Origin: an uncultured Bacilli bacterium | GTDB lineage: Bacteria; Bacillota_I; Bacilli_A; RF39; UBA660 | Assembly (NCBI GenBank): GCA_934085825.1 | Contig: CAKOHR010000001.1 | Coordinates: 64,379-128,378 of the forward strand | Direction: 5' to 3' | Length of the DNA stretch: 64,000 nucleotides | In this document: one piece after another, positions 12,546-57,441 of the stretch | Position numbering within the stretch: position 1 is the stretch's first letter | How the letters are laid out: the number at the start of each line of letters is the position of its first letter | The notes under the pieces: model-generated | Told to the model about the DNA's origin: nothing | Database searches by the model: none | Seen by the model: the letters and a program-made list of their open reading frames with translations, nothing else | Program-made: the position numbers and the translations under genes

Positions 12546-12632
12546 TTTTTTCCTCCCTAATTTATAGTATGTTTTACTTATAATGTGTATTGGGTTAATT
12601 ACTTAGGGTATACTAAATTAAATTATAAGTAA

Positions 12633-12661
12633 TTGACTTTAATAAGTTTTTATTTTAAAAT
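12633..12661 (+). promoter_or_regulatory. strong sigma-A-like promoter of Gly-rich paralog 1
   Basis: TTGACT, a 17-nt spacer, then TAAAAT, ending ~25 nt upstream of the ATG at 12687. Confidence 0.45.
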
Positions 12662-12686
12662 TAGTAATAGGATAGGTTAGAGGTAT

Positions 12687-14648
12687 ATGGACAGAATACG
12701 TGAAAAAATAAAGAAAATCCTTAATAAGGACGTAACAAGTCTTTTAAATAAACATAAAATTCTACTGGTAAGCATAGCTATAGTAGTTATTTTGTCGTGC
12801 GTTGGATTAATAGTTTCGTACGCATTTTATCAAGTTGTAGATACGACCCCAGTGATCTTGAGTACGACACCACAGATAGCAGATTTAGAAGTCAGGATTA
12901 TGGCAGAAGAAAGAGATACTAGTGGTAATGGGCTTAATAGTTATGCTATTTATCCATATATACCAAAAGCTGGATATAAATATGATGCTGGTATGAGTTA
13001 TTGTACAAATGGAAGTACTATTAATTACGATGCAAGTACTTATGATGCCAGTATAAATGCTACCGGGCATGATGTTTGTTATTTATATTTTAAATCAACA
13101 GCAAGCTTAGATATAACTTTAGAAGTTTATGCGGAAAATGTAGATAGTGATGGGGTTGGTAACGGAGAATATACAAAATTAGAAACTACATCTTTGCCAT
13201 CAATTGGATATGAACTTAATAGTAGTAAATCTTATTGTGTGTATGCAAATGATGAAAGTACTCATGTAACTGATACTACAGTTTCTTATAATTCTGATAA
13301 ACAAAAATTTACAGTAAACGCTAGAAAAAAAGGTGCAATTTGTAGGGCTTATATGGATGCAATGGATGTAGATATTGCTCTTAAAATATTTGTTCAAGCT
13401 AAGAAGGGCTCATCAACATATTATGAAGTTGATAAAATACCTGTAACTAGTTTCTATGCACTGAATACTGACAAGTCGGCGTGTACAGGTACATCGACAA
13501 TGTCAATTAAAAATCAAAAAGTTGTGATAGCAGCAACAAATAGAACAAATTGTGTTGCTTATTTAGATGTTTCTTCAGGCCCCTTTATAGAAAGCATGAG
13601 AGTTACAAATTCAGGAACAAGTGCAACAATTACACTTGGAAATAGTAATTTAGGAACAACGCCATCAACATATTATTATTCAAATGATGGTGGAAAAAAC
13701 TATGCAACAAGTACAAGTAACACATATACATTTACAAGTCAAGCAAATCCAAGTTATGCATATAAAGCATATAGTGCAGATGCATCAGGAAATACATCAA
13801 GAGTATTCGAAACATCAACTTATGGATATTATGGATTAGTAGATTATTCAAACCAAATACAGACTAAGACAATTACAGAATCTGGTTATTACAAATTAGA
13901 AACTTGGGGAGCTCAAGGCGGTGGAGATACTAAGTATGTTGGTGGATATGGTGGATATTCGGTTGGATATATTTATTTAAATCCAAATTCAACATTATAT
14001 CTTGCTATAGGTGGAGCTGGTGGTTATTGTACTGGTTCAAGTTGTACTTCAGTAGGAGGGTATAATGGCGGAGGAAACTGTAAAGCATATACAGATTCAA
14101 CATCAACATGTGGAGCTGGTGGTGGAGCTACTCATATAGCGACAATTCCAGGAGTGCTGGCATCATTAGAAAATAATAAAGACAGTATTTTAATAGTTTC
14201 TGGCGCAGGTGGCGGAGGAAATTACTGTAATGACTGGAATTATGCTTCTGGTGGCATGGGCGGCGGATTTACTGGTGGATCTGCAATAGATTTAGGGGCT
14301 CCAGATTTTTCTGCTAATGGTGGTTTAGATACCAAAGGCGGTACACAAGATGGAGGTTGGAAGTTTGGTTTAGGTCGTGGAAGTGAAGGAGCTAACTTTG
14401 TTGGAGGCGGCGGTGGTTATTATGGCGGTAATTCAACATTTATAAATGGCTCTGGTGGTGGTTCTGGTTATATTGGCAATCCATTATTAACAAATAAATC
14501 GATGTATTGTTATAATTGTACAACTAGTAATTTAGAGACAACAAAGACAATTTCTACGACATGCCATAGTTCAAATGCTACTGAAAATTGTGCAAAAGAG
14601 GGTAATGGTTATGCTATTATTACCTATATTGGGAGTGATTTAAGTTAA
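12687..14648 (+). CDS. membrane-anchored glycine-rich surface/secreted protein, tandem paralog 1 of 2
   Basis: 653 aa. A cytoplasmic N-terminus, then a TM anchor ending in an SYAFYQV motif. Next comes a Cys-containing N-domain. The C-terminal half is a Gly-rich region (WGAQGGG, GGYGGY, GGGATHI, IVSGAGGGG, GGGGGYYGG, SGGGSGYIGNPLL), ending in the conserved tail CHSSNATENCAKEGNGYAIITYIG. Confidence 0.8.
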   Translation: MDRIREKIKKILNKDVTSLLNKHKILLVSIAIVVILSCVGLIVSYAFYQVVDTTPVILSTTPQIADLEVRIMAEERDTSGNGLNSYAIYPYIPKAGYKYDAGMSYCTNGSTINYDASTYDASINATGHDVCYLYFKSTASLDITLEVYAENVDSDGVGNGEYTKLETTSLPSIGYELNSSKSYCVYANDESTHVTDTTVSYNSDKQKFTVNARKKGAICRAYMDAMDVDIALKIFVQAKKGSSTYYEVDKIPVTSFYALNTDKSACTGTSTMSIKNQKVVIAATNRTNCVAYLDVSSGPFIESMRVTNSGTSATITLGNSNLGTTPSTYYYSNDGGKNYATSTSNTYTFTSQANPSYAYKAYSADASGNTSRVFETSTYGYYGLVDYSNQIQTKTITESGYYKLETWGAQGGGDTKYVGGYGGYSVGYIYLNPNSTLYLAIGGAGGYCTGSSCTSVGGYNGGGNCKAYTDSTSTCGAGGGATHIATIPGVLASLENNKDSILIVSGAGGGGNYCNDWNYASGGMGGGFTGGSAIDLGAPDFSANGGLDTKGGTQDGGWKFGLGRGSEGANFVGGGGGYYGGNSTFINGSGGGSGYIGNPLLTNKSMYCYNCTTSNLETTKTISTTCHSSNATENCAKEGNGYAIITYIGSDLS

Positions 14649-14679: not shown

Positions 14680-14725
14680 GATTTTTCAATTGTGAAAAGT
14701 TATCCTATAAATGGAGTACGTTATA

Positions 14726-14754
14726 TTGACAAATGTAAGTTTTTATTTTAAAAT
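14726..14754 (+). promoter_or_regulatory. sigma-A-like promoter of Gly-rich paralog 2
   Basis: TTGACA, a 17-nt spacer, then TAAAAT. The leader (14733-14779) is identical to the paralog-1 leader. Confidence 0.45.
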
Positions 14755-14779
14755 TAGTAATAGGATAGGTTAGAGGTAT

Positions 14780-16726
14780 ATGGACAGAATACGTGAAAAA
14801 ATAAAGAAAATCCTTAATAAGGACGTAACAAGTCTTTTAAATAAACATAAAATTCTACTGGTAAGCATAGCTATAGTAGTTATTTTGTCGTGCGTTGGAT
14901 TAATAGTTTCGTACGCATTTTATCAAGTTGTAGATACGACCCCAGTGATCTTGAGTACGACACCACAGATAGCAGATTTAGAAGTCAGGATTATGGCAGA
15001 AGAAAGAGATACTAGTGGTAATGGGCTTAATAGTTATGCTATTTATCCATATATACCAAAAGCTGGATATAAATATGATGCTGGTATGAGTTATTGTACA
15101 AATGGAAGTACTATTAATTACGATGCAAGTACTTATGATGCCAGTATAAATGCTACCGGGCATGATGTTTGTTATTTATATTTTAAATCAACAGCAAGCT
15201 TAGATATAACTTTAGAAGTTTATGCGGAAAATGTAGATAGTGATGGGGTTGGTAACGGAGAATATACAAAATTAGAAACTACATCTTTGCCATCAATTGG
15301 ATATGAACTTAATAGTAGTAAATCTTATTGTGTGTATGCAAATGATGAAAGTACTCATGTAACTGATACTACAGTTTCTTATAATTCTGATAAACAAAAA
15401 TTTACAGTAAACGCTAGAAAAAAAGGTGCAATTTGTAGGGCTTATATGGATGCAATGGATGTAGATATTGCTCTTAAAATATTTGTTCAAGCTAAGAAGG
15501 GCTCATCAACATATTATGAAGTTGATAAAATACCTGTAACTAGTTTCTATGCACTGAATACTGACAAGTCGGCGTGTACAGGTACATCGACAATGTCAAT
15601 TAAAAATCAAAAAGTTGTGATAGCAGCAACAAATAGAACAAATTGTGTTGCTTATTTAGATGTTTCTTCAGGCCCCTTTATAGAAAGCATGAGAGTTACA
15701 AATTCAGGAACAAGTTCAACAATAACACTGGGAAATAGTAATTTAGGAACAACACCATCAACATATTATTATTCAAATGATGGTGGAAAAAACTATGTAA
15801 CAAGTACAAGTAACACATATACATTTACAAGTCAAGTAAATCCAAGTTACGCATATAAAGCATATAGCGCAGATGCATCAGGAAATACATCAAGAGTATT
15901 TGAAACATCAACATATGGATACTATGGATTAGTAGATTATTCAAATCAAATACAAACAAAAACAATTACTGAACCTGGATATTATAAATTAGAAACTTGG
16001 GGAGCTCAAGGTGGAGGATATGGTGAGTATATAGGTGGATATGGAGCATATGCAATAGGATATATCAGACTTGATGCTGGTCCAGTGTATATTAATGTTG
16101 GTGGAGCTGGTAAGAGTGGTGTACAAAGTTCAGAAGGAATTGTTACTTCTGGAGGGTACAATGGCGGTGGAGCCAACACATCAAACAGTTATGGTATTGG
16201 AGGTACTGGTGGTGGAGCAACTCATATATCATTACGTTCTGGGTTATTGCAAACATTAAGTGATTATTTAAATGAGTTGTTAATAGTCTCAGCCGGAGGT
16301 GGCGGAGGTTCACAAGAAATAGGCTATATAGGTTATTGTTATGGTGGATCTGGCGGCGGTATAACAGGAACAGTGGGCTCGTTAAATCCTAACAGAGGTG
16401 ATGGTGGTCCCGGACTTGCAAGTGCACCTACACAAAGCAGTGGTTATGCATTTGGAGCTGGTCAACCAGGCGTTGGTTGGCAAGGCGCAGGTGGTGGCGG
16501 TTATTATGGTGGCATAGCAGGATGCGGTGGATCTGGTGGTTCATCCTACATTGGCAATCCTCTTTTAGTTAATAAATCAATGTATTGTTATAATTGTACA
16601 ACCAGTAGTGCTGAAGCCACTAAAACTGTTTCAACAACATGTCATAGCTCAAATGCTACTGAAAATTGTGCAAAAGAAGGTAATGGTTATGCTATTATTA
16701 CCTATATTGGCGAAAGTTTGGATTAG
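14780..16726 (+). CDS. membrane-anchored glycine-rich surface/secreted protein, tandem paralog 2 of 2
   Basis: 648 aa. The first ~310 aa are essentially identical to paralog 1, and divergence grows after that. The Gly-rich half is strongly diverged, but the last ~50 aa are conserved. Confidence 0.8.
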   Translation: MDRIREKIKKILNKDVTSLLNKHKILLVSIAIVVILSCVGLIVSYAFYQVVDTTPVILSTTPQIADLEVRIMAEERDTSGNGLNSYAIYPYIPKAGYKYDAGMSYCTNGSTINYDASTYDASINATGHDVCYLYFKSTASLDITLEVYAENVDSDGVGNGEYTKLETTSLPSIGYELNSSKSYCVYANDESTHVTDTTVSYNSDKQKFTVNARKKGAICRAYMDAMDVDIALKIFVQAKKGSSTYYEVDKIPVTSFYALNTDKSACTGTSTMSIKNQKVVIAATNRTNCVAYLDVSSGPFIESMRVTNSGTSSTITLGNSNLGTTPSTYYYSNDGGKNYVTSTSNTYTFTSQVNPSYAYKAYSADASGNTSRVFETSTYGYYGLVDYSNQIQTKTITEPGYYKLETWGAQGGGYGEYIGGYGAYAIGYIRLDAGPVYINVGGAGKSGVQSSEGIVTSGGYNGGGANTSNSYGIGGTGGGATHISLRSGLLQTLSDYLNELLIVSAGGGGGSQEIGYIGYCYGGSGGGITGTVGSLNPNRGDGGPGLASAPTQSSGYAFGAGQPGVGWQGAGGGGYYGGIAGCGGSGGSSYIGNPLLVNKSMYCYNCTTSSAEATKTVSTTCHSSNATENCAKEGNGYAIITYIGESLD

Positions 16727-17520: not shown

Positions 17521-17639
17521 ATAAAAAAATGCTCATTTTTTTCTTGTATACTAGGAAAGTCATCCAAAATTTGCAAAATAAAATCTTGATATATGGCCGA
17601 ACATATGATATAATTTAATTGTCCAAGGGGGATTGATTA

Positions 17640-18782
17640 ATGAATACTTATAGAGCATATAAATTAAGAATTTATCCTACTGATTTACAAAGAGAATTAA
17701 TTGAAAAAACTTTTGGGTGTACTAGATATATTTATAATAATTTTCTTGCAGAAAGAAAAAATAAATATGAAGAAAGTAAAATAAAAGTGCATGTTTATGA
17801 ACAGCTAAAAGAACTAACAGATTTAAAAAGGGAAAAAGAATGGTTAAGAGAAATAGATTCATGTGCTTTGCAAGCATCAGTATATAATTTAGATGATGCA
17901 TTTCAAGGATTTTTTCATGGTAAGGGCTATCCAAAATTTATGGCAAAAGGTGTACATGAAAGTTTTAGAACTAATAATACATTAAGTACTTATAAAAATA
18001 AAAAGTATGAAACTATCAGAGTAGATTTTAATAAAAGAATAATAACTTTACCAAAATTAAAAGAAGTAAAGTTTCGAGGATATAGAACAACTAAGGAAAT
18101 CGTAGGAAAAATAAAATCAGCAACAATAAGCAAGGATGCTAACAAATATTTTGTAAGCATCTTAGTTGAAGTGCCATTTTTTAAATATTCAATAAATCCA
18201 ACATCAATCGTGGGATTAGATTTAGGAATTAAAGATTTTATAGTAACATCAAATGGAGAAAAATTAAAAAATGAAGTAAAGATCAATGAGAAGAGATTAA
18301 AAGGATTACAAAGATGGTTAGCTAGATGCAAACCAGGAAGTAAAAATAGATATAAAGTAAAATTAAAAATACAAAGATTATATTTAAAAATTAGGAATGC
18401 CAGAAAATATATGATATATAAACTTGCAAATAATATCTTAAAGGAAAATGACATTGTAGCTGTTGAAACACTAGCTGTTAAAAGCATGTATCAAGTCCAT
18501 AAAATAGCTAAACACTTAAAAAACATACCTATCAGTGAATTTATACGAGTCTTAAAATACAAAGCAGATTGGTTAGGTAAAAAAGTTATTAGTATAAATA
18601 AATATTATCCAAGTAGTCAATGTTGTAATAGATGTGATTATAAAAATGAAGAAGTAAAGGATTTAAGTGTAAGAAAATGGATATGTCCAAGATGTGGATT
18701 TGAACATGACAGAGATATAAATGCAAGTGAAAATATAATGTTTGAAGGATTGAAAATATATATGAAAGAGTGTATAATATAA
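17640..18782 (+). CDS. tnpB: TnpB (OrfB) RNA-guided endonuclease / IS605-family transposase accessory protein
   Basis: 380 aa. N-terminus MNTYRAYKLRIYPT...Q.ELIEKTFGCTRYIYN, a RuvC-like core (GLDLGIKDF), and a C-terminal zinc finger CCNRC...CPRCG. Confidence 0.85.
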   Translation: MNTYRAYKLRIYPTDLQRELIEKTFGCTRYIYNNFLAERKNKYEESKIKVHVYEQLKELTDLKREKEWLREIDSCALQASVYNLDDAFQGFFHGKGYPKFMAKGVHESFRTNNTLSTYKNKKYETIRVDFNKRIITLPKLKEVKFRGYRTTKEIVGKIKSATISKDANKYFVSILVEVPFFKYSINPTSIVGLDLGIKDFIVTSNGEKLKNEVKINEKRLKGLQRWLARCKPGSKNRYKVKLKIQRLYLKIRNARKYMIYKLANNILKENDIVAVETLAVKSMYQVHKIAKHLKNIPISEFIRVLKYKADWLGKKVISINKYYPSSQCCNRCDYKNEEVKDLSVRKWICPRCGFEHDRDINASENIMFEGLKIYMKECII

Positions 18783-18804
18783 ATAAGAACAAAATGAATA
18801 TAAG

Positions 18805-18916
18805 TAGGGTGGCGACCATCCGAAGTTGGTCTGCTTAAGAAACCTAAGGTTTCTGTGAAACAGAAAAGTGTTACCGTGAGGTAACACAGATACTTGAATT
18901 TCGTTAGAAATTTAAG
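18805..18916 (+). ncRNA. omega-RNA (reRNA) scaffold, 3' part, derived from the IS right end (probably begins inside the tnpB 3' end)
   Basis: The block lies immediately after the tnpB stop and ends at the element boundary. It contains the perfect hairpin gtgttacc gtga ggtaacac. A second stem shows compensatory substitutions relative to the copy at 34425-34536. Confidence 0.55.
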
Positions 18917-18970
18917 TTATGTTCTTTATAGTTGGAAGATATAGTATAATTTAAAGTAGAATGAAATGGG

Positions 18971-24048: not shown

Positions 24049-26132
24049 ATGAATATGTTAGAAGGATTAAATAAAGAACAAAAAGAGGCAGTTTTACATA
24101 CAGACGGGCCTTGCTTGGTGCTTGCTGGTGCAGGTTCAGGAAAAACAAAAGTTTTAACAACTAGAATAGCAAATATGATAAATGATGGTATATATTCAGG
24201 AAATATTTTAGCTATAACATTTACAAATAAAGCTGCTAAAGAAATGCGAGATAGAATAAGTAATATGGTGGAAAATAATTATGCTTTTGTTGGAACATTT
24301 CATTCTTTTGGACTTAGGGTTATTAGAGAAAATACAGAAAAATTAGGCTTAACAAGTAATTTTACTATAATTGATAGTGATGATGTTTCAAGTGTCATAA
24401 AAAAAATAATGAAAGAACTTGATATAAGTACTAAAGAATATAGTGTAAGTTATATAAGAAATAAAATTAGTTTTATTAAAAATGAAATGCTTAGTGATAG
24501 TGAAGTTGATAAATATTTAAATAGTCCACCAGAAAAAGTAGCAATTAGGGTATATCATGAATATGAAAAAGTATTAAAGAGAAATAATGCTGTAGATTTT
24601 GATGATTTATTAAAAAGACCTGTTGAATTATTTATGCAAAATGATGATATATTAGATAAATATCAAGAAAAATATAGATATATTTTAATAGATGAATATC
24701 AAGATACAAATGAGGTACAATATAAGTTAGTTAAGTTACTTGCTAGTAAATATCGTAATTTATTTGTAGTGGGTGATGTTAATCAAAGTATATATGGATT
24801 TAGATGGTCAAATTATAAAAATATACTTAATTTTGAAAAGGATTATCCTGATAGTAAAAGTATTACTTTAAATCAAAATTATCGAAGTACAAATAATATT
24901 TTGAATGCTGCCAATAGTGTTATAAAAAATAATGTTGAAAGAAAAGAAGTAAATTTATATAGTACTTTTGGTGATGGTGTTAAAATTAAATATTTTAGAG
25001 GTAATGATGAGAAAGATGAAGTAAAACTTGTCATTGATGAAATGAAGAAATTACTTAATGAAGGATATGATTATAATGACTTTGCCATACTTTATAGAAC
25101 TAATGCTCAATCAAGAAATGTTGAAGATGCTATATTAAAAGTTAATTGGCCTTATAGAGTTGTTGGTAGTTATTATTTCTACAAAAGAAAAGAAATTAAA
25201 GATTTACTTTGTTATTTAAGACTTATTTCTAATCATCAAGATGATGTTTCTTTAGAAAGAGTTATAAATGTACCTAAAAGAGGCATTGGGGATACATCAA
25301 TTAATAATTTGAGAAGTATAGCACGTGAAAATAATGAATGTATGTTTAAGTGTTTATCTAAGCCTAAGGAAGTTGAATTTAAAAAATTGATTTTAGAGCT
25401 TACCGAAGATGCTAAAGATTTAGATTTAACTGAATTAATTGATGTGGTGCTTGAAAAATCTGGATTAAAAGATGAACTTGAAAAGGAACATACTTTGGAA
25501 GCTGATATTAGACTTGAAAACTTAATGGAATTTAAAAGTATTACAGAAAACTATCAAAAAGAAACTGGTACAGTAAATCTTGAAGACTTTCTTGAAGATA
25601 TTAGTATTGTAGCTGATCAATCAGAACATGAAACTTTAGATAATGCCGTTACACTTATGACAATGCATGCTGCTAAAGGACTTGAATTTAAAGTGGTATT
25701 CTTAATTGGTATGGAAGAAGGTATAATGCCACATTCAATGAGTTTAAATGAAGATGGTGAACTTGAAGAAGAAAGAAGACTTTGTTATGTTGGTATAACT
25801 AGAGCTAAAGAAAGACTTTATATTACCAATGCTAAAAGAAGAATGCTATTTGGTAATACCAATATGAACCCGCCATCAAGATTTATCGCGGAAATAGATA
25901 ATAATTTAATAGAAAAAGAAGAAAGTAAAACAGAAAATAAAGCATTTAATAAAACAAACTTTTATGAGGGAGATAGAATTGATTACAAACATGGAGAAAT
26001 TGTTATGCATGCATCATTTGGCAAAGGTGTTGTTATAGATAATGATGAAAGATTTGTAACAGTTGCCTTTGATAAAAGGTTTGGTATAAAGAAATTTTTA
26101 AATAATTATCAAGGTTTAAGGAGGATTGGAAA

Positions 26133-33494: not shown

Positions 33495-33516
33495 AGCTTA
33501 GCTCTATTTTTCCTTT
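33491..33516 (+). terminator. rho-independent terminator
   Basis: atagagc tta gctctat hairpin plus a T-run. Confidence 0.5.
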
Positions 33517-33611
33517 TTTATATACTAAGATAGTTATCCTAATTCTACAAAAACAAATCTTGATATATGGCCGAACATATGGTATAATTCGATTATCATG
33601 GAGGCATTATA

Positions 33612-34449
33612 ATGACTATATATAAAGCATATAAATTTAGAATTTATCCAAATAGAGAGTAAAAGGTAATGATAGATAAAACTTTGGATGTACGAGGTTT
33701 GTTTTCAATAAATTCTTAGTAGAAAGAAAAAAATATGAAGAAAACAAAATTAAATTAAGTGCTTATGATGAGTTAAAAGAACTAATTGATTTTAAAAAAA
33801 GTGGCTTAAAGAAGTAGATTCATGTGATCTTCAAAAATGTGTATTTAACTTAGATGATGCATTTAAGAATTTTTTTTCGTGAAAATTGATATCCAAAATA
33901 TAGAAGCAAAGGAGAACATGAAAGTTATACAACAAATAACACATTAAATGAATATAAAAATGTTAAATATGAAAGTATAAGAATAGATTTAAAAAAATAA
34001 AGTAATAACATTACCAAGACTAAAAAAAGTAAAGTTTCGAGATATAGAAAACCAAAGTAGTAATAGGAAAAATAAAGTCAGCAACAATTAGTAAAGATGC
34101 TAGCAAGTATTTTGTAAGCATCCTTGTTGAAGAGCCGTTTACTAAACCAACTATAAATCCAACATCAATCTTGGGATTAGATTTAGGCATCAAAGATTTT
34201 ATAATTACTTCATATGGAGAAAAACTAAAAAATGAGGTAAAAGTAAATGAATATTATCCAAGTAGCGAGGTTTGCAATAGATGTGAATATAAAAATGAAG
34301 AAGTAAATGATTTAAGTGTAAGAAAATGGATATGTCCAAGATGTGGAATGGATCATGATAGAGATATAAATGTAAGTGAAAATATAATGTATAATATAAA
34401 TAGGAACGAAATAGCTAAAAATATTAGGGTGGCGACTATCCGAAGTTGA
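33612..34449 (+). pseudogene. tnpB pseudogene (multiple frameshifts, internal deletion)
   Basis: Segments homologous to TnpB lie in three frames. The zinc-finger fragment CNRCEY...CPRCG is retained in ORF 34171..34449. Confidence 0.6.
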
Positions 34450-34536
34450 TCTGCTTGAGAAACTTTGGTTTTCAGCGAAACAGAAAAGTGTTACCGTGAG
34501 GTAACACTGCTACTTGAATTTTGTTAGAAATTTAAG
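34425..34536 (+). ncRNA. omega-RNA-like right-end scaffold of the decayed element
   Basis: About 85% identical to 18805-18916. The gtgttaccgtgaggtaacac hairpin is retained, and there are compensatory changes in the gaaacc/ggtttc stem. Confidence 0.45.
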
Positions 34537-34596
34537 CTTTGTTGTGGTTGCTTTCAAAATAAAATTAGTTTAAAATAAATATTGTGAGAGGTAATT

Positions 34597-42352: not shown

Positions 42353-42622
42353 TTGACTATATCATTATCAGTGGTCATAATGCTTGTAGCATATATTTTC
42401 GGAGCCATTACTAAAATATTTATAGAAAAACTACCTAATAATTTTATACCTATTCAAAATGTTGTAATAGGAGTAATTAGTGGTGTTATCTGTTACTTTT
42501 TAAAACTTGATGATAATTTACTTAACTCCATTTTAGTAGGACTTATGTCTACGATGAGTGCAGGCGGAATAGCAGATCTCATAGAAGTGAAAAAAACACA
42601 AGATAATGAAACTAAAGGTTAA
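42353..42622 (+). CDS. small hypothetical membrane protein
   Basis: 89 aa with two hydrophobic helices. Confidence 0.4.
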   Translation: MTISLSVVIMLVAYIFGAITKIFIEKLPNNFIPIQNVVIGVISGVICYFLKLDDNLLNSILVGLMSTMSAGGIADLIEVKKTQDNETKG

Positions 42623-42743
42623 ATGATTTTTCTATAAGCAAATGACAATTGTATGACTAATGTTTTTAATATCAATTTGTAGTTTGAAATTATTATAATT
42701 TTATGATAATATAAGTCTATATGAATGAAAAATTCATATAATA

Positions 42744-42861
42744 AAAAAAGAAACATTTGATTTTCATAGGTCAATGCTTACTTTTTTATGTAGATGATGT
42801 TTACTTGAACATTTATAATGACAAGTAAACATTTTTTTAATGAAGCAAAAATCAAATGTTT
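42744..42861. repeat. nested-palindrome repeat element, copy 1 (outer 15-20 bp inverted arms enclosing a terminator-like hairpin)
   Basis: The outer arm aaaaaagaaacatttgatttt (42744-42764) is the reverse complement of aaaatcaaatgtttc (42847-42861). The inner hairpin is gtttacttg (42799-42807) / caagtaaac (42822-42830), followed by TTTTTTT. The same architecture recurs at 51984-52172. Confidence 0.5.
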
Positions 42862-42942
42862 CAATATTTTTTGTAACAAAAATGTGACTATAAGTAAAAG
42901 AAAATATACTTTTATAAAATATAACTTTTTTATGCAAATGAT

Positions 42943-42980
42943 GTTTACTTGAACGTTTAAAGTTTAGGTAAACTTTTTTT
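42943..42980 (+). terminator. second gtttac...gtaaac hairpin plus T-run in the ATPase leader (attenuator-like)
   Basis: gtttac (42943-42948) ... gtaaac (42968-42973) followed by TTTTTTT, about 50 nt upstream of the ATPase start codon. Confidence 0.4.
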
Positions 42981-43030
42981 GTTCTACTTACGATAGCTTG
43001 TACATATTATTATTCTGGGAGGAAAGGCAC

Positions 43031-45613
43031 ATGGGATTAAATGAAAAAGAAGTAATTGAATCTAGAAAAAAATATGGTACAAATGAAATAACAAAACAAA
43101 AACAAAATACTTTTCTGCATTTATTACTAGAGTCACTCGGAGACCCAATTATTAAAATATTACTAATAGCTTTAGCAATTAAAGTTGTGGTATTATTCCG
43201 TGACTTTGATTGGTATGAAACAATAGGTATTTTGATAGCAATATTTTTAGCATCATTTATCTCAAGTATAAGTGAATATGGTTCTGAAAAAGCATTTTCT
43301 AGGCTTCAAGAAGAACAGTTGAAAACTACTGCCAAAGTAAAAAGAAATGGTAAAATATTAGAAATACCATCAGCTGAAATTGTAGTTGGGGATGTTGTTA
43401 TACTAAATAGTGGTGATAAAATACCTGCAGATGGTTATTTGATTAGGGGGACTTTAAGTGTTGATGAGTCAGCTTTAAATGGGGAAACTAAAGAAGCTAA
43501 AAAGGTCAGTAAAAACGGAGATGTTGTAGCAGATAATAATAGAGTTTTTCGTGGTTCAGTAGTTTATAATGGTGAAGCAGAAATGCAAGTTAGATTTATA
43601 GGTGATAAAACAATTTTAGGTAAGATTTCTCAAGAACTTCAAGAAGTTGTGCCTGAAAGTCCTCTCAAAATAAAGCTTAGAGGTTTAGCAAAAACAATTA
43701 GTAGAATTGGTTATATAGGTGCTATTTTAGCCTCGGTTTCCTATCTGTTCTCTAGTATCGTTCTTGAAAATAATTTTGACTTAGATTTGATTATTGCCAC
43801 AATTACTAATTTTCCAGTTATGTTTAATCATTTACTTTATGCTTTAACTTTATCAGTTACTATTATTGTAGTTGCAGTTCCTGAAGGTCTTCCCATGATG
43901 ATTACTTTGGTTTTATCAAGTAATATGAAAAAAATGCTTAAAGATAATGTGCTTGTTAGAAAATTGGTAGGAATAGAAACTTCCGGAAGTTTGAATGTTT
44001 TACTTACTGATAAAACTGGAACTTTAACTAAGGGAATTTTAAAAGTAACAGAATTTGTAACTCCAGATTTAAAGATATATAAATCTAATATGGAAATAAA
44101 AAAAAGTGTTAATTATGAAATATTATATTCTTCATTTTTTTATAATAATGCTAGTATGATTAGTGAAAATGGTGTAATTGGTGGTAATTCAACGGATAGG
44201 GCATTACTTAATTTTGTGGGTAAAAATAGTGAAATTAGTAAAAAAATAATAAGTAAAGTTCCTTTTGATAGTGCTATTAAATATAGTAGTGTAACTTTAA
44301 GTGATGGAACAATTCTTGTAAAAGGTGCTAAAGAAGTACTACTTTCTAAATGTAAAACTTATTTAAATAGTTTTGGCAAAGAAGTGATGCTTTTAAATAA
44401 AAAAAAGTTAGAGAATAAAATAGATAGTTATACAAAAACATCGGGAAGAGTTTTGATATTTGCCTATGGTAAATCTATGGATAATTTATGTTTACTTGGT
44501 TTTGTTAATATTAAAGATGAGTTACGGGATGAAGCTAAAGAAGGAATTAGACTTATTAAAAGTGCAGGTATAAAACCTATTATGATTACGGGGGATGCAG
44601 TAGATACAGCAGAATCTATTGCACGTGAGGTTGGTCTTATTGATATAAAAAGTAATCTTGTATTATCAAGTAGTGATTTAGAAAAATTAAGTGATGATGA
44701 AATAAAGAGTAAATTATCTAGTATAGCTGTTATAGCTAGAGCTCTTCCTCAAGATAAGAGTCGAATGGTTAGTATTATAGAAAGTATGGATTTAGTGGTT
44801 GGTATGACTGGTGATGGTGTAAATGATGCTCCAGCTTTAAAGAAAGCAAATGTTGGCTTTGCTATGGGAAGTGGAACTGAAGTAGCTAAAGAAGCTGCAG
44901 ATATTGTTATACTAGATAATAATATTCTATCAATTAGCAAGGCAATCTTGTATGGAAGAACTATCTTTAAAAGTATTAGAAAGTTTATAATTTATCAATT
45001 AACAGTTAATATGTGTGCACTCGTTTTATCAATAATTGGTTCTTTTATTGGGGTATCAACTCCGATTACAATTGTGCAAATGCTATGGCTTAATATGATT
45101 ATGGATACTTTTGCAGGGGTTGCATTTTCATTTGAAGCACCACTTGTTGAATATATGGAGGAACCCCCTAAGAAAAAAGATACACCAATTATGAATAAAT
45201 ACATGTATAGTGAAATAATATGGACAGGTATATACTCAGCATTTTTATGTATATTATTTTTAAAACTACCAATCTTTAAAACATTAATTAGAACTGGAGA
45301 AAATTCAAAATATTTAATGACAGCATATTTTGCAATGTTTATATTCATGGGAATATTTAATGCCTTTAATGCTCGAACAGTTAGAATAAATACTTTTGCT
45401 AATTTATCTAAAAATAAAGTTTTTATTGGCATATTTGGTTTTATATTTATAGCCCAGGTTTGGATTATTTATAATGGTGGAGATATTTTTAGAACTTATG
45501 GACTTAGGATAAATGAACTTATTTTAGTACTTTTACTTGCTTTAACAGTATTTCCAGTTGATTGGCTTCGTAAATATATTTTGAAAAAACGTGGTATTGC
45601 CATTAAAATTTAA
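43031..45613 (+). CDS. cation-transporting P-type ATPase (Ca2+-ATPase-like, P2 type)
   Basis: GGAGG RBS then ATG at 43031. DKTGTLT phosphorylation motif, TGDAVDTA, GDGVNDAPALKKA, and 10 TM helices. Confidence 0.85.
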   Translation: MGLNEKEVIESRKKYGTNEITKQKQNTFLHLLLESLGDPIIKILLIALAIKVVVLFRDFDWYETIGILIAIFLASFISSISEYGSEKAFSRLQEEQLKTTAKVKRNGKILEIPSAEIVVGDVVILNSGDKIPADGYLIRGTLSVDESALNGETKEAKKVSKNGDVVADNNRVFRGSVVYNGEAEMQVRFIGDKTILGKISQELQEVVPESPLKIKLRGLAKTISRIGYIGAILASVSYLFSSIVLENNFDLDLIIATITNFPVMFNHLLYALTLSVTIIVVAVPEGLPMMITLVLSSNMKKMLKDNVLVRKLVGIETSGSLNVLLTDKTGTLTKGILKVTEFVTPDLKIYKSNMEIKKSVNYEILYSSFFYNNASMISENGVIGGNSTDRALLNFVGKNSEISKKIISKVPFDSAIKYSSVTLSDGTILVKGAKEVLLSKCKTYLNSFGKEVMLLNKKKLENKIDSYTKTSGRVLIFAYGKSMDNLCLLGFVNIKDELRDEAKEGIRLIKSAGIKPIMITGDAVDTAESIAREVGLIDIKSNLVLSSSDLEKLSDDEIKSKLSSIAVIARALPQDKSRMVSIIESMDLVVGMTGDGVNDAPALKKANVGFAMGSGTEVAKEAADIVILDNNILSISKAILYGRTIFKSIRKFIIYQLTVNMCALVLSIIGSFIGVSTPITIVQMLWLNMIMDTFAGVAFSFEAPLVEYMEEPPKKKDTPIMNKYMYSEIIWTGIYSAFLCILFLKLPIFKTLIRTGENSKYLMTAYFAMFIFMGIFNAFNARTVRINTFANLSKNKVFIGIFGFIFIAQVWIIYNGGDIFRTYGLRINELILVLLLALTVFPVDWLRKYILKKRGIAIKI

Positions 45614-51837: not shown

Positions 51838-51861
51838 CACTTGTCAAAAGTGCTTTTTTTT
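51838..51861 (+). terminator. rho-independent terminator after 49832..51778
   Basis: cactt gtcaa aagtg hairpin plus T8. Confidence 0.5.
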
Positions 51862-51880
51862 GGTATTATTTAGTAGTCAT

Positions 51881-51957
51881 GGCGAGATAGCTCAGCTGGC
51901 TAGAGCATCCGGTTCATACCCGGCAGGTCGAGAGTTCGAATCTCCCTCTCGCTACCA
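51881..51957 (+). tRNA. tRNA-Met (anticodon CAT; could alternatively be the lysidine-modified tRNA-Ile2)
   Basis: GGCGAGATAGCTCAGCTGGCTAGAGC ... anticodon loop TTCATAC ... GGTCGAGAGTTCGAATCTCCC, with encoded CCA. Confidence 0.85.
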
Positions 51958-51983
51958 ATTTGAAATAAATATTTTTTTATATA

Positions 51984-52172
51984 AAAAAGAAACATTTGAT
52001 TTGGTCGTCCGATGTCATCTTTTACTGCTAATGATGTTTACTTGAATATTTATTATAACAAGTAAACATTTTTTTAATATTCCAAAAATTTTACTTATTA
52101 GACTCACCTCCATAAATAATTATTTAATGGGAAGTAATATAATTACTATTGGTAATAAAAATCAAATGTTTC
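51984..52172. repeat. nested-palindrome repeat element, copy 2 (expanded spacer)
   Basis: 5' arm aaaaaagaaacatttgattt (51984-52003). Inner hairpin gtttacttg (52036-52044) / caagtaaac (52059-52067) plus a T-run. 3' arm aaaatcaaatgtttc (52157-52172). Confidence 0.45.
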
Positions 52173-52235
52173 GAAAAATATTTTAACAAATAAATTGTAT
52201 TTAGTAAAGAAAAATTTACTATGTGGTAAATAAAA

Positions 52236-53853
52236 TTGTAAGTTCCCGTTTAAGTTAAAATGGGAATTAAGTCTTTAACAAAAGAAAATGAACATGATAT
52301 AATATGACTATTACCTTGGGGATAAGGCAACGCTGAGGAGCGACCTGAGCACTTGGTAATGCTATGCAAAAAGAAGCAAATCTTATATTCAAATGAGATG
52401 CTTCTCTTTTTTTGTTTCTTTTTTGCTAGCAATAATGCGTTAAACCTCGGGGTTTGGGGCAGAGCCCCATTTGCAATTTCATCTTATTTTTTGTAAAATA
52501 TACACTTGTGGTTTGTTTGTCAATCAGGGAGGAAAAAATATAATGACAACAAATTATGTTCATTTAAATAAAGAACAAAGAAGCACTATTGAATATTTAA
52601 TTAGTCAAGGTCATAATTTTACATACATAGCAAATGCAATTAAAGTGGATAGAACCACAATATCTAAAGAGATTAAAAGAAACAGATATGTTAAAAATAG
52701 TCCGTTTTCTGAATATAGTAAAACAGGCATTGAAAGAGCATCTAAATCTTGTGCAATTTTATCTAAACCACCATATTGTTGTAACAATTGTAAAAATAAA
52801 AGTTTTTGCACTAAAGCACATTTATATTATAATGCATCCAAGGCACAAAAACACTATGAACAACAGTTAGTTGAAACAAGACAAGGGTTAGATATTACTA
52901 AAGAGGAAATAGATGAAATAAATGAAATAAATAGAATAATTATTCCTTTAGTAAAGAATAAAAAGCAAAGTATTAATCAAGTATTTGCTAATCATTCTGA
53001 TATTTTAAATATGTCAAAGCCAACATTTTATAAAAACGTTGATTTACAAGTAATTATGCTTACTAATCTGGATTTGCCAAAGAAAGTAAAGTATAAAAAA
53101 AGAAAAGAAAACAATAACAAACAATAAAAAAAGCACTTGCTTTATCAATTGGAAGAACGTTTGAAGATTATGTTATAAAAATTGAAAAAGAAAAAAATTT
53201 AAATATATGGCAACTAGACACAGTTATTGAAAAAAATTCTGATAGCAAAGTATTAATGACTTTCTTATTTGTTAAAACCAACTATATGGTTATTAGATTA
53301 CTAGATAAAAAATGCATTGAATGTGTAGATAAGGAGTTTGACAAAATTAGAAACTCTTTTGGAAGCGATGGATACAAAAAATATGTTGAAGCAATTTTAA
53401 CTGATAATGGTACAGAGTTTTTTGATCCGATTCATTTAGAAAATGATTTAGACACTGGGGAAAAATTAACTTCACTTTATTATTGTCACCCGAATTCGCC
53501 GGAAGAAAAATCTGAAATAGAATGTAATCATAAATATATAAGATATTTTCTACCAAAATCATCTAGTTTTGAAACATTAACAAAAGAACAGGTCAAAGAA
53601 ATCGAAGACAACATCAACAATGTACCTAGAGAAATATTAGGAGATAAGTCTCCATATGAACTTACAAAGAAAATGTATCCAGAGTTAACTGAAATATTAG
53701 ATGCAAATTATATTGAGCCTGATGAAGTCACTTTAAATCCAGATGATATTTTCAAAAAAGATATCAAAACAAAAGAAGAAGATTAATTTCTCCTTCTTAG
53801 TTGGCAAACAAGCCACATTCAACAAAACATATAACATGTACGGGAACTTAGTT
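52236..53853 (+). mobile_element. IS30-family insertion sequence (boundaries approximate) inserted next to tRNA-Met
   Basis: Terminal inverted repeat core TAAGTTCCCGT at 52239-52249, with its reverse complement ACGGGAACTTA at 53840-53850. Encodes an IS30-type transposase. Confidence 0.55.
52543..53786 (+). pseudogene. IS30-family transposase interrupted by a frameshift in an A7 run (parts 52543..53127 and ~53118..53786)
   Basis: The N-terminal part MTTNYVHLNKEQRSTIEYLISQGHNFTYIANAIKVDRTTISKEIKRN is the IS30 HTH. After a frame change at 53126-53132, the DDE region (IWQLDTV ... LTDNGTEF) continues in another frame. Confidence 0.6.
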
Positions 53854-54105
53854 GTGAAAAGACAAAATTACGTACACTTTTTCACGTGTCATAAATTCCT
53901 TTACAGGTATTATTTTAACATATTTTTTTAAAATTGCTAGTATTTTTTATCAAAAAATGCTGATATTTTCTGAATTTTTATGGTTCTTTATAAAAAGTGG
54001 GAACTTTCAACTTAATTTTTCCAAAATTTACTATGCGCAACTAAAAGTTGATAGAGATTAGTTATTATATATTATAAAATTAGCTAAAGAAAAGGAGGTC
54101 TTCAT

Positions 54106-55293: not shown

Positions 55294-57093
55294 TTATTCA
55301 ACAGTAACAGATTTAGCTAGGTTTCTAGGTTTATCTATATCACAACCATTACTTTTGGCAACTTCATATGCTAATAATTGAAGTGGAATTATGGTAAGAA
55401 TAGATTCTAAAATTGGATGAAGTTTTTTAATAACAATTATTTCATCATAAAAGTTTTCTTTTGGAATGTTATTTGTAACAAGTATTACATATGCTCCTCG
55501 TGCTTTAACTTCTTTAATGTTACTGATAGTTTTTTCGTTTAATTCTTCATCTGTTGAAATTGCAATTACTGGAGTATCTTTTTCTATCAATGAAATAGTT
55601 CCATGTTTTAATTCACCAGCTTGATAAGCTACACTATTAATATAAGATATTTCTTTTAATTTTAAAGAGGCTTCCATACAAAGCGCATAATCAATACCTC
55701 TACCTATGAAAAATATTTCTTTTTTATTAAATATTTGTTTTGCCACTTGTATGTACATTTCATTTTTAATTGTGTCTTTAATATATGTAGGCATTTTTGT
55801 AATTTCATCTTTTATTTTTACAAATTCCTTTTCGTTTATTAATTTATTATTATATCCTAGATAAATTGTTAGTAAACTAAATATGGCTAGTTGAGCTAAA
55901 TATGCTTTTGTTGTTGCTACCGCTATTTCAAATCCTGCTTTTATATAAATAGTATGATCGGCTTCGCGGGCAATGGATGAACCAATTACATTTACAATTG
56001 CCATAGTCGTAATACCATCTTCTTTAGCTTTTCTAAGAGCTGCAAGAGTATCTGCAGTTTCACCAGATTGGGAAACTAGTATGACTAGTGTGTCCTTGTC
56101 ATAAAAGCATTTTTTATATCGGTATTCGCTTGCTACTTCAACATTTACAGGAATATTTGCATAATTTTCAATTAGATATTTACCAACAACACCCGTATGA
56201 TATGCAGATCCACAAGCTACAATATCTATTTTTTTGAAATTTTTTATAAAACCAAAGTTTTTTTCTAAAGAGTTTATTGTACCATCAAAGTAATAATTAA
56301 TTGTATCATTAAATACTTTATCTTGTTCATTTATTTCTTTTAACATAAAATGTTCGAATCCAGCTTTTGTGGCAGCATCCATTGTGCCTTCAAAAGCTTT
56401 AATTTCTTTTTTTGCTTCATTTAAATCTTTGTCATATACTGTAATTTTGTTTTTATCAAGTTTTACTATGTCATATTCATCAAGTAGCATATATTTATTT
56501 GTAAAAGCAAGTATTGCTGGAACATCAGATGCTACATAGTATCCATCTTCACCTATGGCAGCGATCAATGGACTAGCACATCTTGTTGCATATAATTTGT
56601 CATCACCATCTACTAAAACTGCAAAAGCGTATGAGCCTCTAATTAATTTACTAGCTTCATGTAAAGTTTCTATCATATTTTGTTTTTCTTTGTATAAACT
56701 ATCGAGTAGGGCAGCTGCTACTTCGGTGTCTGTTTCACTTTTAAATTCGTAGCCTTTTTTTATTAGTTTGTCTTTTATTTCTATATAATTTTCAATAATT
56801 CCATTGTGTACTAAAGTAATGACTCCTGATTTATGAGGATGAGCATTAATTTTATTTGCTTCTCCATGGGTTGCCCATCTTGTATGACCAATTCCTAAAT
56901 TGGAATTGGCGTCCATATTAACAACGTCTTTTAAATTTTTTATTTTCCCTTTTTCTTTTATAATTTGTACTGTATTATTTTCTACGTAAGCAATACCAGC
57001 AGAATCGTACCCCCTGTATTCTAGAGCTTCTAAAGCTCCAATAAGTCTTGGAACACATTTTTTAGTTCCGTTATATCCAATAATTCCACACAT
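55294..57093 (-). CDS. glmS: glutamine--fructose-6-phosphate aminotransferase GlmS
   Basis: N-terminal MCGIIGY (Ntn Cys) and two SIS domains. 599 aa. Confidence 0.9.
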   Translation of the reverse strand: MCGIIGYNGTKKCVPRLIGALEALEYRGYDSAGIAYVENNTVQIIKEKGKIKNLKDVVNMDANSNLGIGHTRWATHGEANKINAHPHKSGVITLVHNGIIENYIEIKDKLIKKGYEFKSETDTEVAAALLDSLYKEKQNMIETLHEASKLIRGSYAFAVLVDGDDKLYATRCASPLIAAIGEDGYYVASDVPAILAFTNKYMLLDEYDIVKLDKNKITVYDKDLNEAKKEIKAFEGTMDAATKAGFEHFMLKEINEQDKVFNDTINYYFDGTINSLEKNFGFIKNFKKIDIVACGSAYHTGVVGKYLIENYANIPVNVEVASEYRYKKCFYDKDTLVILVSQSGETADTLAALRKAKEDGITTMAIVNVIGSSIAREADHTIYIKAGFEIAVATTKAYLAQLAIFSLLTIYLGYNNKLINEKEFVKIKDEITKMPTYIKDTIKNEMYIQVAKQIFNKKEIFFIGRGIDYALCMEASLKLKEISYINSVAYQAGELKHGTISLIEKDTPVIAISTDEELNEKTISNIKEVKARGAYVILVTNNIPKENFYDEIIVIKKLHPILESILTIIPLQLLAYEVAKSNGCDIDKPRNLAKSVTVE

Positions 57094-57099
57094 TTAAAA

Positions 57100-57248
57100 A
57101 ATCCTTTCTTTAATGTATGTGATATATTTTTTATTACAATGTTGATTTTGCTTTTTGTAATATATCTGACGATTATACAAACCGTGATGCATCCGCCGAA
57201 TGTTCGATAAACATCATCCTCGTTAACCTCAGGGGTCTGGCGCTAACA
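57100..57248 (-). ncRNA. glmS ribozyme (GlcN6P-dependent self-cleaving riboswitch) in the glmS leader
   Basis: The reverse complement reads ...TAGCGCCAGACCCCTGAGG...ACGAGGATGATGTTTATCGAACATTCGGCGGATGC..., matching the conserved glmS ribozyme core (AGCGCCAGA at the cleavage site; ACGAGGA..CGAA..TTCGGCGGATGC). Confidence 0.75.
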
Positions 57249-57441
57249 AATAATTTTACCTCCATCAATTATTTTGTTTTCATTTTCATTATAATATATG
57301 CAAAATAAAAAGTCAAAAAGTTTTATATTAATGTTTACAGCTAATTATAGATGGTAATTAATTAAAAAGAAATATTTTGAAGTTTTAGCAGGCTCTAGAC
57401 ACGTAACTTCATTTATTGTATAATTGATGTGGTGACGCAAA

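Follow-up and report, generated by a model that had tools for sequence, protein, structure and literature searches.

Nested palindromes

Two intergenic regions of one contig from an uncultured Bacilli bacterium share a nested palindrome, and the question is what kind of element it represents. The contig stretch analysed (the window) comprises 64,000 nt (contig CAKOHR010000001.1 of assembly GCA_934085825.1, positions 64,379 to 128,378). In it, a pair of outer inverted arms enclosing an inner hairpin with a T-run occurs upstream of a gene for a P-type cation ATPase (copy A), and again between a tRNA-Met gene and an IS30-like insertion sequence (IS) element (copy B). An earlier sequence-only reading took the two copies for a dispersed intergenic repeat resembling repetitive extragenic palindromes (REP), BOX elements or miniature inverted-repeat transposable elements (MITE). 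The present analysis suggests that both are decayed members of a family of modules, each combining a small RNA (sRNA) gene with an overlapping gene on the opposite strand. These modules fairly probably work as type I toxin-antitoxin pairs of the Gram-positive 3′-overlap kind.

The two window copies share more than their palindromes

The arms, the hairpin and the T-run described earlier do recur, with arms of 14–20 nt, an 11 bp hairpin and a T7 run at 42745–42865 and 51984–52172. For copy B, direct reading and an inverted-repeat search placed the 5′ arm, GAAACATTTGATTT, at 51989–52002, just after an AAAAAA run, and the 3′ arm, AAATCAAATGTTTC, at 52159–52172. These 14 nt arms are 100% complementary and are separated by 156 nt. 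The inner hairpin of copy B is formed by ATGTTTACTTG (52034–52044) and CAAGTAAACAT (52059–52069), which pair over 11 bp and are followed by T7 (52070–52076). Copy A carries the arms of copy B at 42750–42763 and 42849–42862, and the same hairpin, again followed by T7, at 42797–42832. Over a 70 nt core the copies are 83% identical, and the 20-mer AAAAAAGAAACATTTGATTT is exact in both. Measured from arm to arm, copy B spans 184 nt and copy A 113 nt; copy B is indeed the longer, as had been stated, by 71 nt and not ∼90 nt, and the surplus is not an insertion (see below). The similarity continues for about 60 nt past the 3′ arm (42847–42910 versus 52157–52220, 72% identity), so that the repeated unit does not end at the arms.

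The recurrence of the palindromes in the window is not a matter of chance. The stem 9-mer GTTTACTTG occurs seven times, against 0.74 occurrences expected, a count reached by none of 100 shuffled sequences. Fold z-scores relative to shuffled controls were −5.6 for copy A and −4.7 for copy B. A covariance model (R1), built from 29 distinct copies, scored copy A at 124 bits (E 2e-20) and copy B at 93 bits (E 1e-14). It also recovered a degenerate third copy at 42875–42984 (27 bits), and matched nothing further in the window.

The family in related gut Bacilli

R1 matched 99 copies in 74 loci of related uncultured gut Bacilli, each match running from promoter to terminator. With two to three copies in the window and these 99 model matches, the relationship is not restricted to two copies sharing a pair of short palindromes. 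The copies occur as one to three per site, often in tandem, with about one site per 80–500 kb; contigs of 160–530 kb carry one to five copies. These counts per contig and per site are lower bounds, since the scan needed an exact pattern. When one genome per species was scanned for the hairpin, matches were found only in metagenome-assembled genomes of uncultured gut ‘Bacilli’ or ‘Tenericutes’ (one or two exact hairpins per genome), plus two chance matches. Scanning metagenome contigs for the 5′ motif added 67 loci. The ATPase protein was found on 10 gut-metagenome contigs, and the 648 amino acid (aa) protein adjoining copy B on 12.

Copies lie at orthologous positions across species, and both window loci are base-for-base identical in four to six assemblies of the window species (the window plus three or five contigs). 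Comparison of a complete module with plasmid and phage records by blastn gave no match, nor did a pattern scan of viral contigs. Rfam, searched at gathering thresholds and at permissive E-values, returned nothing at E ≤ 1 for the complete module, and only noise for the window copies.

Each unit contains a predicted small RNA gene

The part common to all units is a predicted sRNA gene of ∼125 nt, promoter to terminator included. In almost all copies the promoter, of the sigma-70 type, consists of a −35 box reading TTGAAA, TTGCAA or TTGATA, a 17 nt spacer and TG-n-TAATAT as extended −10 box. Next come a 5′ hairpin (TATATGAA...TTCATATA), an invariant single-stranded stretch of 22 nt, AAAAAAGGAAACATTTGATTTT, with the conserved AAAAAAGGAAACAUUUGAUUUU, a lineage-specific segment of ∼30 nt, and a terminator hairpin with T6–7. 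The inner palindrome is, on this prediction, the intrinsic terminator of the sRNA, mirrored by a complementary hairpin inside the open reading frame (ORF) of the opposite strand.

The structure is maintained in 95.5% of the cells of the family alignment. Compensatory changes convert a C-G pair of the terminator into U-A in nine sequences, and an A-U pair of the 5′ hairpin into G-C or U-A in seven. On the left, conservation reaches ∼40 nt past the 5′ arm, over the 5′ hairpin and the promoter, and on the right ∼40–60 nt past the 3′ arm, over the promoter of the opposite strand. At one type of site, a solitary copy has an unrelated gene on one side and the pheST promoter and T-box on the other; the unit is therefore taken for an independent sRNA gene, and not for a leader alone. 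The variable segment was also considered as the site of a plus-strand ORF, which was rejected because its start codon is not conserved.

Complete modules carry a predicted small gene on the opposite strand

Some 40% of the copies continue for ∼130 nt past the terminator until the 3′ arm is reached, giving 227–231 nt from arm to arm. Such a complete module would be a two-promoter unit of ∼330 bp. Among 22 distinct complete modules, a conserved TATAAT (often TGnTATAAT) lies on the opposite strand 9–11 nt before the arm, which therefore corresponds to the predicted 5′ end of an opposite-strand RNA. The 5′-untranslated region (5′-UTR) of this RNA contains a C/U-rich tract and the conserved sequence GGGGUUUUGG, and is followed by a Shine-Dalgarno (SD) sequence reading GAAAGGGGUGG, GAAGGGAGGGA or AAAGGAG. 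The ORF has 33–42 codons and specifies a lysine-rich peptide (for example MLLKRFKRFLMKLLASLKKCLLVIINVQVNIITYKK). It crosses the terminator hairpin, its stop codon falling immediately ahead of the 5′ arm reverse complement and a U-run, and the predicted mRNA, from its promoter to the U-run, is ∼235 nt long. The sRNA and the mRNA overlap by ∼95 nt, with perfect complementarity to the mRNA 3′ end, and the overlap covers the C-terminal 18 codons.

The 18 distinct ORFs share a single frame and length, with no indels. In the ORF frame, the ratio of non-synonymous to synonymous substitution rates (dN/dS) was 0.58 for the N-terminal part, which lies outside the sRNA, and 0.31 for the C-terminal part, while the other two frames gave values of 1.2–1.3. 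At loci L067 and L068a, five substitutions disrupt a local RNA hairpin and the ORF stays open.

The outer arms correspond to the two ends of the predicted mRNA

The first ∼30 nt and the last ∼40 nt of the predicted mRNA can pair in a helix of ∼27 bp (−25 to −34 kcal/mol). For the inner half of the helix, at least three different sequences were found: GUUGAGUGUUACCG, GUGCUUACUU and GCCUACU. Co-variation was judged by comparing the energies of cognate and non-cognate duplexes: each of these sequences gave −18 to −23 kcal/mol with its cognate partner, and −4.5 to −13 kcal/mol with foreign ones. Folds of whole mRNAs close into a panhandle, with z-scores of −6.9 and −8.9. The outer palindrome is for this reason read as the predicted two ends of the opposite-strand mRNA, and as what remains in the window copies of a 5′–3′ long-distance interaction.

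A type I toxin-antitoxin module as the favoured reading

Taken as a type I toxin-antitoxin pair, which is the reading we hold to be moderately probable, the module would work as follows. The full-length mRNA would be closed by its ∼27 bp 5′–3′ helix. The sRNA would pair with the last ∼95 nt of the mRNA, probably starting as a loop-loop contact between the complementary hairpins, and this pairing would block translation, trigger cleavage of the duplex, or both. The architecture and its conservation are read directly from the alignments, whereas the type I function is proposed by analogy. Type I systems have been defined by an mRNA of 150–400 nt, a peptide of 20–60 aa, SD/anti-SD motifs and 5′–3′ long-distance interactions, and in the Gram-positive families the overlap with the antisense RNA is on the 3′ side and takes in the ORF (PMC8594479). 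The complete modules fall within these mRNA and peptide sizes (∼235 nt, 33–42 codons); copies A and B do not, their ORF start having been deleted. An antisense gene with a promoter and terminator of its own, overlapping the ORF on its 3′ side, is likewise present in the predicted layout. Decayed forms are also found in relatives. The frequent loss of precisely the ORF start by deletion counts in favour of a toxin, because inactivation of this kind is typical of toxin genes.

A number of observations weigh against this assignment. The coding signal is modest, as only about four independent lineages are available, and the C-terminal half of the ORF is also under the constraint of the antisense sRNA. 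One lineage has an ambiguous start codon (ATT/ATC, GTG/GTA or an upstream ATG). The peptide has a charge of +7 to +9, an amphipathic N-terminal half and a borderline hydropathy (1.4–2.1 in the best 19-residue window), and is not a classic transmembrane toxin. No protein sharing words with the 42 aa version was found in a collection of 5.8 billion proteins, and Pfam, NCBIfam and PADLOC searches with the peptides gave nothing at E ≤ 10. For the C/U-rich tract, the computed partner is either the SD sequence or a conserved GGGGG tract; the SD itself may be masked by this tract, masked by the mRNA 3′ end, or free, its direct pairing with the 3′ end being one of two computed alternatives. Finally, about 60% of the 99 copies lack the ORF, so that the sRNA may function independently of it, and neither copy A nor copy B has one that could be translated.

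One further decayed form deserves mention. The middle unit of triple arrays (L009 6564–6760; also L025, L029, L035, L061 and L074) has an internal deletion that cost the sRNA body the 3′ terminator half and fused it to sequence antisense to the putative toxin 5′-UTR. This variant is kept in seven loci.

Copy A as a probable part of the ATPase leader

Copy A (plus strand, 42684–42841; R1 match 42710–42841) retains all parts of the predicted sRNA gene: the promoter TTGAAA-17-TAATAT found by promoter scan at 42684–42712, the 5′ hairpin at 42718–42740, the arm at 42750–42763, and the terminator at 42797–42832 with its T7. Alignment with the orthologous loci L024 and L012 revealed three deletions in the window, of 114, ∼20 and ∼102 nt. 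The 114 nt deletion, at 42844/42845, took the ORF start, the SD, the 5′-UTR and the inner strand of the helix from copy A. What is left on the minus strand is the 3′ arm (42849–42862) and a decayed promoter with a −10 box reading TACAAA (42849–42905 together). Copy A is thus, by prediction, an intact orphan sRNA gene with a dead opposite-strand partner. A 57 aa minus-strand ORF that crosses it (42764–42937) was rejected as a product of the deletions, relatives being without it.

The ∼102 nt deletion removed the promoter, 5′ hairpin and arm of a second sRNA copy, which in relatives sits directly before the ATPase gene. Its remnant (plus strand, 42875–42984) is the degenerate third copy detected by R1, of which the terminator alone is left: the terminator scan located a hairpin at 42943–42973 with a T-run to 42980, just before the start codon of the ATPase. 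The ATPase gene itself, identified by its Pfam domains, occupies 43031–45613 on the plus strand. The promoter scan detected no promoter-like site on the plus strand between 42713 and 43031, and the ATPase gene must therefore be transcribed through two family terminators. The suggestion made earlier, that the terminator-like core could be co-opted for regulation at the ATPase locus, is supported in so far as the core lies in the transcription path of the gene: in the window and in eight related loci alike, the start codon follows a family terminator at a distance of ∼55 nt with no promoter-like site between them. The leaky terminator of copy A and the remnant of the second copy probably together form the ATPase leader.

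The gene order around the ATPase varies. In the lineage of L009 and L004 the ATPase gene lies upstream of the module array and points at it, while in the window lineage it lies downstream (L009 3591–7270 versus window 42353–45613); compared with the modules and with a gene for an 89 aa membrane protein, the ATPase segment is thus turned around. This latter gene (window 42353–42622, plus strand) constantly adjoins the array. Its product has a sub-threshold match to the phage holin family PF16079 (22.8 bits, cut-off 29.2).

Copy B follows a tRNA gene

Copy B starts 27 nt past the tRNA-Met (CAT) gene (51881–51957, plus strand; ARAGORN and Rfam tRNA model). It lacks the promoter and the 5′ hairpin of the family, the junction with the tRNA standing in their place. 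The sRNA body (51984–52078, plus strand; R1 match 51953–52078) retains the A-run, the 5′ arm, the variable segment, and the terminator hairpin (52034–52069) with T7. A promoter-like site, TTGTCA-17-TATTAT, was found by promoter scan at 51841–51869, ahead of the tRNA. The tRNA-Met transcript most likely runs on into copy B, which would then be its 3′ trailer and supply its terminator; in relatives, tRNA-Met has an ordinary terminator downstream and no copy B.

On the minus strand, copy B retains the 3′ arm (52159–52172), which reads GAAACAUUUGAUUU and would be the 5′ end of the opposite-strand RNA, and a promoter detected by scan at 52180–52208 (TTTACT-17-TAAAAT with TG). The arm lies 7 nt downstream of the −10 box, a layout like that of the complete modules. 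A GGAGG is also kept, at 52111–52107, within a hairpin predicted to sequester it. The remnant ORF (52015–52113, minus strand) reads MEVSLISKIFGILKKCLLVIINIQVNIISSKR up to its stop codon. From the SD to a Cys codon there are 44 nt, versus 70–71 nt in complete modules; ∼26 nt, the ancestral start codon included, are thus gone. The inner helix has been lost too, and no start codon remains at the proper spacing. Because of the missing ∼26 nt with the start codon, the ORF is probably a pseudogene.

The alignments indicate that the extra sequence of copy B is the leftover of the opposite-strand gene that copy A lost with its 114 nt deletion, and not inserted material. When the 82 nt specific to copy B were compared with all fetched loci, noise alone was obtained, and a fuller version of copy B was not found among them.

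The IS30-like element had been described as abutting copy B. It begins ∼64 nt past the 3′ arm, near it and not directly adjoining. The element spans 52230–53850, possibly to 54018, with inverted repeats TAAGTTCCCG and CGGGAACTTA at 52239–52257 and 53832–53850, and a second candidate right end at 53999–54018. Its transposase is divided into two ORFs, 52543–53127 (HTH_38) and 53256–53786 (no Pfam match), and is split into the same ORFs in all five places shown for the species. The 5′ end of the element (52275–52425, plus strand) contains a strong promoter-like site, TTAACA-17-TATAAT with TG. This is followed by a 118 nt stretch folding into a pair of hairpins, of which the second resembles a terminator and has a U-run; the z-score of this stretch is just −2.2, and it has no Rfam match. 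The 3′ flank of tRNA-Met (window 51958 onward; L004, L009, L061, L075 and L077) varies among relatives, in which repeats of the TTGGCCATAAAAGTTGGCC type and differing cargo come after an ordinary terminator. The flank looks like a hot spot for integration or rearrangement, judging from these arrangements.

Alternative explanations

The main rival to a toxin-antitoxin module is a multicopy family of trans-acting sRNAs, often in tandem, whose opposite-strand RNA would be a non-toxic antisense partner or sponge, or would encode a harmless small protein. The many copies without an ORF, the stand-alone copies equipped with promoter and terminator, the tandem arrays of two to three copies, the seed-like appearance of the invariant single-stranded 22 nt stretch, and a peptide that is not classically hydrophobic are all in keeping with it. 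It is nonetheless rather unlikely, as it leaves aside the dedicated conserved promoter of the mRNA, the co-varying 5′–3′ closing helix, the retention across lineages of the frame, length, SD and stop of the ORF with a dN/dS below 1 in that frame only, and the frequent loss by deletion of precisely the ORF start, as is typical of toxin genes. An ATPase-specific riboswitch was rejected because the downstream genes are unrelated. The broader idea of a cis-acting attenuator or riboswitch-like leader, controlling the P-type ATPase and other downstream genes through the terminator, draws on the ∼55 nt between family terminator and ATPase start at the window locus and its eight relatives, and on a similar arrangement of a spoIIR homologue in L010. 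As an account of the whole family it is improbable: the same RNA is found upstream of the ATPase and spoIIR genes, before the pheST promoter and T-box, after sigE, and opposite a convergent gene; an alternative antiterminator pairing is not apparent; Rfam gives no match; and the ATPase gene of the L009 lineage is not preceded by a family RNA. Because its contexts are unrelated, attenuation is not the defining function of the family, and a secondary, co-opted attenuator role is likely at some sites (ATPase, spoIIR). A combination of both functions is a doubtful proposition, somewhat less so than attenuation by itself. In such a scheme the sRNA would be the antitoxin of an undescribed family of cationic-peptide type I toxins and, by way of its leaky terminator and the 22 nt stretch, a shared attenuator leader as well. 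The P-type ATPase, spoIIR and even a tRNA transcript would then come under one common RNA-level control, and orphan copies would be kept for regulation instead of being debris.

The two remaining readings fare worse. The sequence-only reading was right that a family exists at unrelated intergenic sites (99 copies in 74 loci), and the units are, like REP, BOX or MITE elements, short, AT-rich and palindromic, one of them lying beside a tRNA gene and an IS. That they are mobile or recombinogenic repeats with the arms as terminal inverted repeats is very improbable, and this part of the proposal was rejected. Homology continues past both arms to conserved promoters, so that the arms lie inside a unit with promoters at both ends and no target-site duplication can be defined. 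In addition, copy number is low (one to three per site), positions are orthologous across species and invariant among the four to six assemblies available for each locus, collections of phage, plasmid and viral sequences gave no match, and complete units have an opposite-strand ORF with an SD. The inverted repeats of 14–28 nt that flank a unidirectional terminator in a gene leader also call to mind an invertible switch, in which a recombinase would flip the segment between the arms and so turn a terminator before the ATPase gene on or off. This has the smallest probability of all, and was likewise rejected. None of the 99 copies has its interior flipped relative to the 5′ hairpin, the 11 exceptions being 3′ arms, deletion variants and contig ends. 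The strain assemblies are identical at each locus, with the proviso that consensus assemblies could mask a minor subpopulation. The spacing in copy A is just 85 nt, and no recombinase gene lies next to the modules.

Comparison with known systems

As a type I toxin-antitoxin module, the family is best compared with bsrG/SR4 and txpA/RatA of Bacillus subtilis. These too consist of a small mRNA and a convergent antisense RNA, each with its own promoter, an arrangement that in the present case is predicted from the sequence. The antisense RNA is located on the 3′ side over the ORF, its terminator hairpin lies opposite a complementary hairpin of the mRNA, and the sizes comply with the definition of the class (PMC8594479); the SD, held within structure in those systems, may be so here as well. 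In bsrG/SR4 the loop of the antisense terminator makes the first contact, and the antitoxin both destabilises the mRNA and tightens sequestration of the SD (PMC3834814). Unlike these systems, the present peptide is cationic and amphipathic instead of a hydrophobic transmembrane helix, the mRNA ends pair over ∼27 bp, and the loci occur in several copies or in tandem, many of the antisense genes being orphans. There is no sequence or model similarity either: Rfam, Pfam, NCBIfam and PADLOC revealed no RNA or peptide resemblance to described type I families (RatA, SR4-type, SprF, RNAII, Fst, TxpA and others).

Pairing of the mRNA ends, predicted here, recalls hok/Sok and aapA/IsoA, in which it keeps the full-length mRNA translationally inert; in the aapA/IsoA model, masking of the SD by the long-distance interaction involves an anti-SD motif close to the mRNA 3′ end (PMC6733600). 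Those systems also have several chromosomal copies per genome, but they are Gram-negative. In the modules described here, it is the mRNA 3′ end that would be covered by the antisense RNA. REP, BOX and MITE elements share with the family their short, palindromic, AT-rich, intergenic and repeated nature; they differ from a unit that has two promoters, a terminator and an ORF, internal arms, a low copy number, orthologous sites and no strain polymorphism.

Features of the sRNA part have parallels elsewhere. The LhrC1-5 genes of Listeria form arrays of sRNA genes of ∼100–130 nt, each with its promoter and terminator, with extra dispersed copies, as seen here. LhrC-type families are not known to carry an overlapping ORF on the other strand. 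Their seed is C/U-rich, versus purine-rich in the present family. 3′ETS-leuZ of Escherichia coli is an RNA derived from the 3′ external transcribed spacer of a tRNA, and copy B would likewise come off as a tRNA trailer, with the difference that this trailer is a captured member of a predicted sRNA gene family.

As Rfam, Pfam, NCBIfam, PADLOC and the protein collection gave no match, the modules are a candidate new family of a known class. If the favoured assignment is correct, they would be an undescribed type I toxin-antitoxin or sRNA family, so far confined to uncultured human-gut Bacilli, for which almost no RNA regulators are known, and overlooked by gene callers, Rfam, Pfam and NCBIfam. 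They would join the Gram-positive 3′-overlap layout to a closing helix of the hok/aapA type, and would show how such loci decay to orphan sRNA genes and find a new use, as a gene leader or a tRNA terminator. For annotation, ‘palindromic repeats’ of this sort would be better recorded as sRNA or small-ORF genes than as REP or MITE elements.

Other features of the window

Some features of the window unrelated to the modules were also recorded. A glmS ribozyme (57111–57255, minus strand; 78 bits) precedes glmS (55294–57093, minus strand) in the ordinary arrangement. A match to Rfam RF03531 (‘n00280’, an sRNA of Clostridioides difficile) lies inside a helicase gene at 25738–25836 on the plus strand, with 73.8 bits, above the gathering threshold. 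An element of ∼1.4 kb is present in two diverged copies (76–90% identity) at ∼17540–18923 and ∼33514–34543, the translations of which resemble a TnpB-like (IS200/IS605-type) ORF of L010 (4261–5457). Finally, a direct repeat with 98% identity links 12632–12931 and 14725–15024 at a spacing of 2093 bp, and further pairs are spaced alike, pointing to a recent tandem duplication of part of a gene.

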